Origin: Syntrophales bacterium
Lineage (GTDB): Bacteria > Desulfobacterota > Syntrophia > Syntrophales > UBA2210
Direction of reading: 5' to 3'
DNA: 64,000 bases
Assembly (NCBI GenBank): GCA_963666365.2
Contig: CAXXNF010000001.1
Span: 1,280,001 to 1,344,000, forward strand
The notes beneath the pieces are model-generated. The model was not told where the DNA came from, ran no database searches, and saw only the letters and a program-made list of their open reading frames with translations. A program made the position numbers and the translations under genes. Position 1 is the first letter of the stretch. The number at the start of each line of letters is the position of its first letter. Positions 22 to 2,575 of this stretch are shown here, piece by piece.

Positions 22-435
22 ATGAAGACAATCATCGGGATTGCAGGTAGAGTGTGTATCGTCCTTATCGTGGGATTCATAGCGGCCTATCCCGCAATTC
101 TCAATGGAGGAGGCTCCATTCACCACACTGTCTCGGTTTTGAATGCCACTGACAACACCATTCTGGTGGTGGTGGAGCGGGGGGCCTTGCCGTCGCCCGT
201 CAGCGGAGACCTCGGGCCGCATGGGGAAATTGTGCTCGATTGCGGCAGCCTGTGCCCCACGAAATTATACGGCGTAATAGCAAGTACCGGAGAGACGGTT
301 GAGCCTGTGTGCGTCAACTTCGGGAACTCGCCTGGCCCGGCGGGAGTGTGCGGCGCCGCCTGCTGGTCATCAAAATGGATGGTCGTGACGCAGCAGAGTG
401 GTAGTTATCACTACGGCTTTCGGCCCCGTTCGTGA
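22..435 (+). CDS. Hypothetical secreted protein, Cys-containing
   Basis: GGGAG RBS upstream, N-terminal hydrophobic signal segment, no recognised domain. Confidence 0.6.
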   Translation: MKTIIGIAGRVCIVLIVGFIAAYPAILNGGGSIHHTVSVLNATDNTILVVVERGALPSPVSGDLGPHGEIVLDCGSLCPTKLYGVIASTGETVEPVCVNFGNSPGPAGVCGAACWSSKWMVVTQQSGSYHYGFRPRS

Positions 436-491: not shown

Positions 492-686
492 ATGTTCGGA
501 CTTTTGAACAAGAAAAAAATCGAACGGCCCGATCCGTGCCGGGACGACCGGTGGGAGGACCTGCTTGACGAACCTCTCGGCGGCGGATGAAGCGCCTCTT
601 TTGACGGGAGGTCGGTCGATTTCTCATTTCAGTTCTTCCGGAACATCAAGCTTCTTATTCAAAAATTGAGGAAGAGGGGGCGCTGA
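492..686 (+). CDS. Putative small selenoprotein, 64 aa, Sec at codon 33 (UGA 588-590)
   Basis: Manual translation MFGLLNKKKIERPDPCRDDRWEDLLDEPLGGG-U-SASFDGRSVDFSFQFFRNIKLLIQKLRKRGR; hairpin with GGUC loop 23 nt after UGA; ORF ends 4 nt before the convergent gene's stop. Confidence 0.55.
606..625 (+). promoter_or_regulatory. Candidate SECIS element
   Basis: GGGAGGTC-[GGTC]-GATTTCTC, 8-bp stem including 3 G-U pairs. Confidence 0.5.
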
Positions 687-690
687 ATCC

Positions 691-1779
691 TCATCTTTTT
701 TTCAGTACCACCTCAAGTCTGTTCGTTCCGTTTACTCGTCGGAATGCGATAGCCTGCGCTTTTCTTTCGATAAGCATCCGACCGATATCGTCATCCCCGG
801 CGCTCTCCAGGATCTGTCTTTCTTCACCGGCGAACTCGAAGCTGATTTCTACGGTGTCCTGTTTTTCGGAGTAGGCGACCTGCAGATGCGCGTCGATGGT
901 GTCCACCTGCGATTGATAGAGCACCAGCAGTTCTTCGACAATTAAGACAATGTCATGAGCCGTTTTTTTCGACAGCGCATGCTTCTCGCAGAATTGCTCG
1001 ATTTCGGCATTCATTGTGTAGAGATCGTAGTGAAGACCGAAAATGTGATAGTTGAAACTGCGCACTCGATGGATAAATGCCCTGGTTTTTTCCCTTTTCG
1101 GATGTTCAAAAATCTGCTCCGGTGGACCGTCTTCGTAAATGAATCCCTCATCCATGTACAACACCCTGGTGGCGACGTCGCGGGCAAAGGCCATTTCATG
1201 GGTGACGATCACCATGGTCATTCCCTCCCGGGCGAGACGCCGAATGACGGCAAGCACTTCGCTTGTCATTGTCGGGTCAAGGGCGGAGGTCGGCTCATCA
1301 ACGAGCATAATTTCGGGGTCCATTGAAAGGCATCGGGCAATGGCCACTCGTTGTTTCTGGCCGCCCGACAATTCGTCGGCATAATTCTCCGCCTTTTCTG
1401 CAAGTCCCACCATTGCAAGCAGCTCCATCGCGTGCGCTTCTGCTTCGCGGCGCCCTTTCCCCAGCAGTTTTACCTGTCCGATAGTCAAATTTTCCATAAC
1501 GGTAAGGTGGTTGAAAAGATTGAATGATTGGAAGACCATCCCCATTTTCCGGCGCATCTTCGGCACGTCAGTATTTTTATCGAGCATATCAATGTCGTCG
1601 ATCCATATTTTTCCCTCCGTGGGCATCTCAAGCAGATTAAGACAGCGTAAAAAGGTGCTTTTTCCCGTGCCGGAGGGACCGATGACGGCAATGATTTCTC
1701 CTTTGCGTATTTCGACGGTCACGTCCTGCAATACCGTAAGGGCGCCGAATCTTTTTTTCAGATGTTCCACCCGTATCAT
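691..1779 (-). CDS. Polar amino acid ABC transporter ATPase (GlnQ-like) with a C-terminal degenerate RsbW/HATPase_c-like domain
   Basis: Walker [25 protein letters not shown]; about 120-aa extra C-terminus; start moved to MIRVEHL. Confidence 0.9.
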
Positions 1780-1780
1780 G

Positions 1781-2575
1781 TCACTGCACCCGACCGGTTT
1801 CAAGTTTCGGATTTGTTTTCCGCTCGATGTACTCCAGCAGCAGCATGAGCAGCCATGCGATGAGAAAGTACAGCACCGCGACCATCACGAGGGGGAAGAA
1901 GGCATCGAAGGTGCGGCTTCGTATGATGTCGCTTGCCTTGGTAAGATCCTGGACGGCGACATAGCCGACCACGGAGGTCATTTTCACCAGTGAGATCATC
2001 TCCCCCTTATAGACGGGCACTATGCGCCGCACCGCCTGGGGAAGCACGATATACACAAACGTTTCTATCCTGGAAAACCCCATGGCGATGCCCGCTTCCG
2101 TCTGCCCCTTGTCGACACTCTCGATGCCGGCCCGGAACATTTCGGATACATAGGCCGCAAAATTCAGACCGAAGGCAATGACGGCGACAAACAAGGGATC
2201 GATGTCTATTGATGCAAAGACGACATAAAATATGATCATCAGCAACACGAGCACGGGGGTGCCGCGCAATATCGAAATATATATCCGTGCGGGGACGTGC
2301 ATAATTTTTTTTCGTGACATCCGCAAAAAACAGATTCCCCCACCCAGCACAGTACCCAGGAGGATGGCAAGCACCGAGAGTAGTACCGTGGTCCTTAACC
2401 CGTCGATTATAAGCAAATAGCGATTTTCCTTGATAATATTGTTGTGAAAACTTTCGACGACGGCGCGGAGGACCGAGGCGGTCCCGGCGTCGGCCGATGG
2501 CGCGGCATCGCCGCACCCCGCGGCACAGAAGAGTGCGACGAGCACCAACAGTATGACGATACCGAAATGTTTCAT
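1781..2575 (-). CDS. Polar amino acid ABC transporter permease
   Basis: RGTP motif, [22 protein letters not shown] (EAA loop). Confidence 0.92.

Follow-up and report, generated by a model that had tools for sequence, protein, structure and literature searches.

The classic bacterial cases of a selenocysteine insertion sequence (SECIS) that lies inside the open reading frame (ORF) and is served by SelB are fdhF and selD. Here, we describe a small gene, very probably of this type, at positions 492-686 of a 64,000-nucleotide stretch (the window) of contig CAXXNF010000001.1, which belongs to the assembly GCA_963666365.2 of a Syntrophales bacterium. As in genes decoded through SelB and a bacterial SECIS (bSECIS), an in-frame UGA is followed by a hairpin within the coding sequence, with a spacing of 23 nt and an upper stem of 8 bp, and the genome carries selA, selB, selD and tRNA-Sec (Sec, selenocysteine). 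In contrast to these genes, the hairpin of the window is marginal in energy and no sound cysteine (Cys) homologue was found for the family. We conclude that window positions 492-686 constitute a real gene. From the comparison of sequences, it is highly probable that the UGA at 588-590 is translated as Sec, with the hairpin at 606-625 acting as the predicted SECIS bound by SelB. Very likely, the mode of decoding is ordinary bacterial Sec insertion and the protein family is new.

Several short selenoproteins have been catalogued, including Hypothetical protein DG (NF049953, motif GUxG), UXX-star family 2 (NF041211, GxGU) and the Dual CXXC small protein OS_HP3 (NF041197) (PMC13188914, Table 1). 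The family described here resembles them in being short, of unassigned function and known by its UGA and a SECIS-like hairpin, and in having a glycine next to Sec. It differs from DG in its motif, which reads [GA]-G-U-S-[AV]-S and not GUxG, and from these small proteins in general in the position of Sec, which is found mid-protein and not three residues from the C-terminus. Furthermore, DG, DW and DF all have Cys homologues (PMC12013277), whereas none was found for the window family. The Selenobacteriocin / GeoRSP target peptide (TIGR04081, SGUG, two Sec; PMC13188914, Table 1) is likewise a short Sec peptide with glycines around Sec; here, the window family differs by its single Sec, by the lack of a match to TIGR04081 and by the absence of adjoining radical S-adenosylmethionine (SAM) or export genes in 30 loci.

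The first-pass annotation of this DNA, a reading of the bare sequence, had assigned the protein to no family that it recognized, and this view holds up against the databases. Searches of Pfam and NCBIfam with three members returned no family at E <= 10, and with all 30 members, the only matches at E <= 1 were two unrelated single ones (E 0.13 and 0.23). No entry in the 119-family table of a 2026 review carries the family motif (PMC13188914, Table 1); the models of this table that were scanned are those of Pfam, NCBIfam and TIGRFAM. A motif search within Table S1 of the BSepDB supplement gave no match, although the representative sequences of its Table S2 could still list the family, and none of the papers listed by a literature search names a Syntrophales-specific small selenoprotein. 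Given its absence from the 119-family table and from the Pfam and NCBIfam models, we regard the family as a candidate new selenoprotein family, whose unusual trait would be the lack of a Cys counterpart.

Relatives and conservation on both sides of the UGA

From the ATG at 492-494, the frame runs over 32 sense codons to the TGA at 588-590, stays open for 31 further codons (SASFDGRSVDFSFQFFRNIKLLIQKLRKRGR) and closes with a TGA at 684-686; the stop codon (691-693) of a convergent ABC-ATPase gene (691-1803, reverse strand) lies 4 nt beyond. The first-pass annotation had read this layout from the letters, and it is seen as described. The choice of start codon draws on the closest relative, the metagenome contig L094: the two sequences become similar only from the ribosome-binding site onwards, and upstream of it they are unrelated. 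We therefore took ATG 492 as the start and rejected GTG 432. In the family, a GGAG, GAGG or AGGA core is present at -18 to -4 of the chosen start in 18/29 loci, compared with 8% of random 14-mers; the starts had been picked partly by this core itself. The gene is single-copy in its own genome, and scans of the window with Rfam (gathering thresholds) and ARAGORN gave no match.

Homologues, which the first-pass annotation had called for, are readily found within the order. When the read-through protein was searched against 61 genomes in all six frames (the window's own and 60 relatives), two clear matches spanning the UGA emerged: one came from the other species of the window's genus (E 5e-12), the second from a different family within the order (E 2e-7). 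Each is a complete small ORF with one in-frame TGA, which is located at the same place. When a profile of the three sequences was run on 339 genomes of the order, 37 matches were obtained at E <= 0.01, and 32 of these, all of which were read, contain exactly one in-frame TGA. The TGA falls on one alignment column in 29 copies (L001, L004, L017-L020, L022-L044); in three others (G190, G177 and the divergent G327), which were read in frame outside the alignment, it again precedes an S-A motif. The remaining five matches include one copy with TGC at this column (G174), one with a 2-nt insertion just before the TGA (G179), one spurious match (G128) and two weak matches with TAG (G101 and G058). 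By family, the matches amount to 30/116 in f15, 2/2 in f22, 1/18 in f10 and, in the window's own family f1, 1/36 others, this one being the sister species.

Wider searches point to the same distribution. In an even sample of the phylum (401 genomes), only the window's genome and one f15 genome matched, and none of the ~387 genomes of this sample from outside the order did so at E <= 0.001. A degenerate DNA pattern across the UGA and the hairpin, run on 185,579 species genomes, retrieved 25 records, all of them metagenome-assembled genomes (MAGs): 19 are titled Syntrophales (Smithella 10, Smithellaceae 4, Syntrophaceae 4, Syntrophales 1) and the other six 'Deltaproteobacteria' only. With the Sec codon written as TGH, this pattern picked up 25 metagenome contigs, comprising 23 family members, all with TGA, and two TGC contigs that are unrelated sequences. 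The family has been found so far only in the order Syntrophales.

Family proteins are 63-81 residues long, and the 30 rows of our alignment A3 are 22-43% identical to the window protein. In this alignment, G32, U33 and F44 do not vary, and D26, P28, L29, S34, G39, V42 and R43 are conserved in at least 90% of rows, so that conserved positions stand on both sides of Sec. The variation at the DNA level is that of a coding sequence before and after the UGA: entropy at the three codon positions is 0.76/0.82/1.47 bits in the 15 codons before it and 0.95/0.78/1.38 bits in the 25 codons after it, the third position being the most variable. The UGA codon itself has zero entropy at all three positions, compared with 1.71 and 0.58 bits at the flanking third positions. 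Between the window and L094, we counted by hand from the alignment 4 synonymous changes and 6 replacements before the UGA, and 5 synonymous changes and 2 replacements after it. The conservation past the UGA that the first-pass annotation had asked about is of the coding type, and its reading of a small selenoprotein is supported by homologues, two-sided conservation, the hairpin and the Sec machinery of the genome.

The part following Sec comprises 25-40 residues in 28/29 loci. In the exception, G211 (L038 / L045), there is no stop after the family ORF before the end of the stretch, and the frame continues into the gene that follows, which opens with MKKMIVVLSAALAFGG.... A second, N-terminal motif, [AV]-K-T-G-K-G, is seen ~25-30 residues before Sec in the Smithella-type rows of A3 (e.g. 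L018, L023, L025, L031) and in L004; it is common to many members, and the window protein is without it.

Public protein sets also bear out the earlier statement that standard gene callers would miss this gene, as they hold only fragments that end before the UGA. A search of 5.8 billion protein clusters with A3, restricted to proteins of 31-118 residues, gave no match at E <= 0.001, and a profile search of 1.84 billion representatives found no full-length homologue, only stubs cut at the UGA and three longer matches. The sequences of six representatives (30-44 aa) stop precisely at '...PLPAG', with the last residue encoded just before the UGA, and such stubs are what gene callers make of a gene of this kind. 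The three longer matches (1346, 3343 and 171 aa) were all taken as chance, and the 171-aa protein (P0013) is the one that was read. It contains three repeats of '...TRNDDNDILPQPLGGGCSSLFSAEALLCCPVA...', each similar to the DD..D..PLGGG-U-SS core but with Cys in place of Sec; its match (E 8.7e-4) is probably due to chance.

The hairpin and the Sec machinery

The GGUC-loop hairpin that had been proposed 23 nt after the UGA is present (Table 1). Its arms and loop read GGGAGGTC/GGTC/GATTTCTC in DNA and GGGAGGUC/GGUC/GAUUUCUC in RNA, with 8 pairs, three of them G-U. As set out in a figure legend of the review cited above, the bSECIS model asks for 3-9 nt in the loop, 4-16 bp in the upper stem, a G in the first two loop positions, a distance of 16-37 nt from the UGA and a minimum free energy (MFE) of at most -7.5 kcal/mol (PMC13188914, Fig. 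2 legend). We used a simple implementation of our own of this published model, not bSECISearch itself. By this measure, the window hairpin agrees with the constraints on loop size, stem length, G in the loop and spacing (8-bp stem, GGUC, 23 nt), and a G-first loop at a spacing of 23-24 nt is found in 21/29 members.

The helix is kept in the family with compensatory changes, which answers the question of its conservation raised by the first-pass annotation. Stacking 29 members from the TGA without gaps places a helix at alignment columns 20-27/31-38, with GUC as the loop, or GGUCC where the closing pair is open. Pairing reaches 92.7% of cells, compared with 34-71% after displacement of the 3' partner by 1-3 columns. 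Compensatory changes are observed at three pairs (11 cells), and the covariation score of 0.314 (0.240 +/- 0.016 in shuffles) was reached by 1/500 shuffles; RNAalifold predicts the same helix. Typically, ACG is replaced by GCG (Thr to Ala) on the 5' arm together with a synonymous CGU-to-CGC change in the 3' arm. Codons +6 to +11, which lie under the stem, have a third-position entropy of 0.48-1.11 bits vs ~1.4 elsewhere, and low variation at these sites is what a second constraint, acting on the RNA, would produce. Even the divergent G327 has kept a G-first-loop hairpin on a different stem sequence.

Sec insertion also depends on the machinery that the first-pass annotation had expected, and all four components are present in the genome with scores above the family cut-offs: SelA (519 bits), SelB (361 bits), SelD (383 bits) and tRNA-Sec (76 bits). 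The selD gene (L073; G000:C1:483557-484486) has an in-frame TGA of its own and hence encodes a Sec-type SelD; it carries a hairpin comparable to that of the window, whose loop contains GGUG and is located ~21 nt from the UGA.

Several observations weigh against reading the locus as a selenoprotein gene. Folding of positions 580-660 gives z = 0.22 vs 200 shuffles, and 103/200 shuffles fold at least as well; because the window hairpin taken alone is no better than chance, its significance derives from the relatives. Its energy amounts to -6.8 kcal/mol by itself and to -8.8 kcal/mol within 35 nt of context, on either side of the model limit of -7.5 kcal/mol, and only 14/29 members agree with all model constraints once this limit is included. 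The register of the window stem deviates by one base from that of the family consensus. Moreover, the hairpin is part of the coding sequence, and for this reason conservation of the RNA and of the protein is not fully separable. No operon is conserved around the gene, which usually stands by itself, and its neighbours vary between loci and are mostly on the other strand. Finally, no sound Cys homologue was found in the 339 genomes of the order, the protein sets or the metagenome scan, and the review describes nearly all selenoproteins as having Cys homologues and those without as unusual (PMC13188914).

The expectation that Cys homologues at position 33 might be found was thus disappointed: the sole TGC copy (G174) is frameshifted, and the 1.84 billion representatives contain no full-length Cys form. 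In G174 (L021), a 1-nt deletion puts the ATG out of frame with the conserved part and the loop is changed from GGUC to GUUC. This copy shares 90% DNA identity with that of G207 (L030), in which the ATG is lost and the hairpin damaged. The copy of G179 (L101) is frameshifted by the 2-nt insertion mentioned above. To judge from their sequences, these three copies look like decay in a few (Smithella) lineages or like MAG assembly errors, and not like a working Cys form.

Table 1. Features of the probable selenoprotein locus, in window coordinates.
Feature	Position	Strand	Description
Weak Shine-Dalgarno-like AAAGGGAA	476..483	+	9 nt 5' of start codon; read from sequence
Probable selenoprotein gene	492..686	+	64 codons M1...U33...R64 and TGA stop; homologues of the same architecture found
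Acidic pre-Sec segment RDDRWEDLLDEPLGGG	540..587	+	D26, P28, L29 at least 90% conserved, G32 invariant
UGA, predicted selenocysteine codon U33	588..590	+	TGA at same column in 29/30 aligned loci
SECIS-type hairpin (predicted)	606..625	+	arms 606-613/618-625, loop GGUC 614-617, 23 nt after UGA
Cationic amphipathic C-terminal helix FQFFRNIKLLIQKLRKRG	627..680	+	residues 46-63; AlphaFold2 block, predicted local distance difference test (pLDDT) 85-95
Terminator-like hairpin (676-692) and T-run spanning stop codon	676..703	+	consensus scan only

Other readings of the locus

The alternative that survives best leaves the Sec codon in place and concerns function only. The gene might encode a bacteriocin-like precursor, in which an anionic double-glycine leader (...DLLDxPLxxG) is cleaved to free a cationic amphipathic peptide with Sec as its first residue. 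G at -1 and A/G at -2 before Sec in 29/29 members, L at -4 in 26/29 and an acidic leader followed by a cationic C-terminal part in 30/30 would all suit such a precursor, and a Sec-containing 'selenobacteriocin' family is listed among known selenoproteins (PMC13188914, Table 1). We nevertheless consider this improbable, given that the window's genome (94% complete) has no Peptidase_C39 (PF03412), that the 103 ORFs adjoining the gene in 30 loci include no recurring C39, ABC-exporter or immunity-like gene, and that the family matches neither TIGR04081 nor any other NCBIfam model. The gene is also present in a single copy in its genome. In addition, the acidic and hydrophobic positions do not fit what we take to be the register of a classical double-glycine leader.

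It is more doubtful still that the gene is real and the UGA is read by another route, with a near-cognate tRNA inserting Trp, Cys or Arg in place of SelB and Sec-tRNA. The modest thermodynamics of the hairpin would be compatible with this, as would the lack of a sound Cys form that could show the need for a chalcogen at position 33. However, if any residue were tolerated, TGG, TGC or TGT should appear at the Sec column, yet TGA is found in 32/33 readable copies of the order-wide profile search and in 23/23 members from the scan that permitted TGC and TGT. The published bSECIS geometry of the hairpin, the constraint on synonymous sites beneath it and the complete Sec machinery, including a SelD gene with its own in-frame TGA, likewise favour decoding by SelB and make readthrough by a near-cognate tRNA a very improbable account of the conserved TGA.

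We give hardly any credence to the view that the UGA is an ordinary stop, with a 32-residue peptide or nothing being made and the hairpin at 606-625 serving as a terminator or other non-coding RNA. A consensus scan does list 606-625 as terminator-like, the hairpin is no more stable than shuffled sequences and gene callers close the ORF at the UGA. What decides against it is the sequence beyond: 25-40 codons after the UGA are free of stops in every member and terminate at a comparable position, variation there has a three-base periodicity (0.95/0.78/1.38 bits), and the changes relative to L094 are mostly silent (5 synonymous, 2 replacement). S34, G39, V42, R43 and F44 are conserved although the proteins share only 22-43% identity, conservation reaches ~60 nt past the hairpin and into the amphipathic helix, and a second terminator-like site is located at the true end of the ORF.

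That the real gene lies on the opposite strand, with the sense frame and its TGA as a mere shadow, is no easier to believe: antisense ORFs of 84-139 aa do overlap the family gene in 18/30 loci, one frame is open over the 132-nt core in 20/30 loci and its synonymous fraction (0.248) is close to that of the sense frame (0.264), but we reject this reading because the antisense ORFs are in three different phases with unrelated starts and ends, the best antisense frame contains stops in 10/30 loci, the window ORF has only 45 aa (490-627) and misses the conserved 628-683, and the A of the TGA, a four-fold degenerate third position in that frame, is nonetheless A in 29 copies and C in 1, against a mean third-position entropy of ~1.4 bits, and also in view of the ribosome-binding cores before the sense start in 18/29 loci.

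Protein features, neighbouring genes and possible role

The protein features listed by the first-pass annotation, C16, an acidic stretch before U33 and a basic C-terminal helix, are all present in the window protein, with AlphaFold2 placing the helix at residues 46-63. The model has a mean pLDDT of 69.3, and this helix is its only confident part. In the family, the 16 residues before Sec are net negative and the 14-18 residues after V-R-F net positive in 30/30 members, and the hydrophobic moment of the tail beats at least 95% of shuffles in 17/30. A Cys 12-17 residues before Sec, as read from A3, is present in ~2/3 of members and is not invariant. The N-terminus is devoid of a hydrophobic stretch. 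Foldseek found no match in the PDB (best E 9.1), and a sequence profile search of the PDB gave 0 matches at E <= 10.

MinD and FtsA carry C-terminal amphipathic helices that target them to the membrane. The tail of the window protein is similarly short, cationic and amphipathic, of the type F-x-K-I-K-S-L-F, and confidently predicted to be helical; it differs from these helices in having no sequence homology to them, and it may bind a membrane. Because its N-terminus has no hydrophobic stretch, the protein would be expected to stay in the cytoplasm. There, Sec would sit on an acidic, probably disordered arm, the upstream Cys, where present, could form a selenenylsulfide with it, and the cationic amphipathic helix may let the protein dock at the membrane's inner face or with a partner.

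Our survey of the neighbourhood covered 103 adjoining ORFs of 30 loci. A peroxiredoxin is encoded within 1.5 kb in 5/30 loci, in some of them split by a TGA of its own. Other recurring neighbours are a PNPOx-like flavoprotein (10 loci, in 6 of these together with UppP (BacA)), rhodanese (4 loci), Fe-ADH (4), NifU_N (3) and Crp-type regulators (3). FUR, an AhpD-like CMD protein, Thioredoxin_4 with DUF1847, and a catalase-peroxidase each occur at a single locus. Since peroxiredoxin, rhodanese, NifU, FUR, AhpD-like, thioredoxin-like and catalase-peroxidase genes are found beside the gene, its product is likely to be a small selenol redox or carrier factor that would act in defence against peroxide and thiol stress. 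The association of these genes is loose, and because the genomes are related and not independent of one another, the neighbours give no more than a hint of a role in redox or peroxide stress.

The peroxiredoxin (AhpC-TSA) ORFs beside the family genes deserve a remark of their own. They are either split or start at profile position ~61-73 (L026 1793-2047 and 2120-2365, reverse strand; L023 1291-1689; L030 1588-1986; L031 2817-3200; L043 1714-1986). A peroxiredoxin gene broken by an in-frame stop of its own, possibly a Sec codon, would look like such split ORFs.

In the window itself, the convergent ABC ATPase, described as 'glnQ-like', has 370 aa, of which residues 25-173 match ABC_tran; its C-terminal extension of ~120-160 residues is without an assigned domain. 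On the other side, the upstream ORF at 22-435 (forward strand, 137 aa) contains a single hydrophobic segment at the N-terminus, and seven Cys are located in the C-terminal half; no Pfam family matches it, and it is not present 5' of the family gene in L094. A selenium-sensing leader peptide controlling a downstream gene was considered as well and rejected, because the downstream genes are mostly convergent.

Taken further, the family might consist of obligate-Sec micro-proteins that arose within Syntrophales and never had a Cys form, with the membrane-docked selenol serving neighbouring peroxiredoxins and sulfur-transfer proteins. We consider this bolder proposal unlikely as a whole. If it were true, the selenol would hand reducing equivalents to neighbouring proteins, or resolve them, and thereby represent a new minimal redox partner in strictly anaerobic syntrophs.

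Lists of bacterial selenoproteins have been built mainly from Cys/Sec pairs or from matches to known families. The family described here is invisible to both routes, because it has no Cys relatives, is present mostly in uncultured MAGs and consists of proteins of only 63-81 residues. For annotation, this would mean one additional gene, now shortened or missed by gene callers, for each of the 32 genomes of the order with a TGA-bearing copy. The family also provides a clean case in which Sec appears indispensable and, with one Sec on an acidic arm and one amphipathic helix, a tractable object for the chemistry of a lone selenol. It would enlarge the selenoproteome of Syntrophales (Smithella and its relatives), organisms that play a key part in the syntrophic degradation of fatty acids and alkanes in digesters and oil reservoirs.

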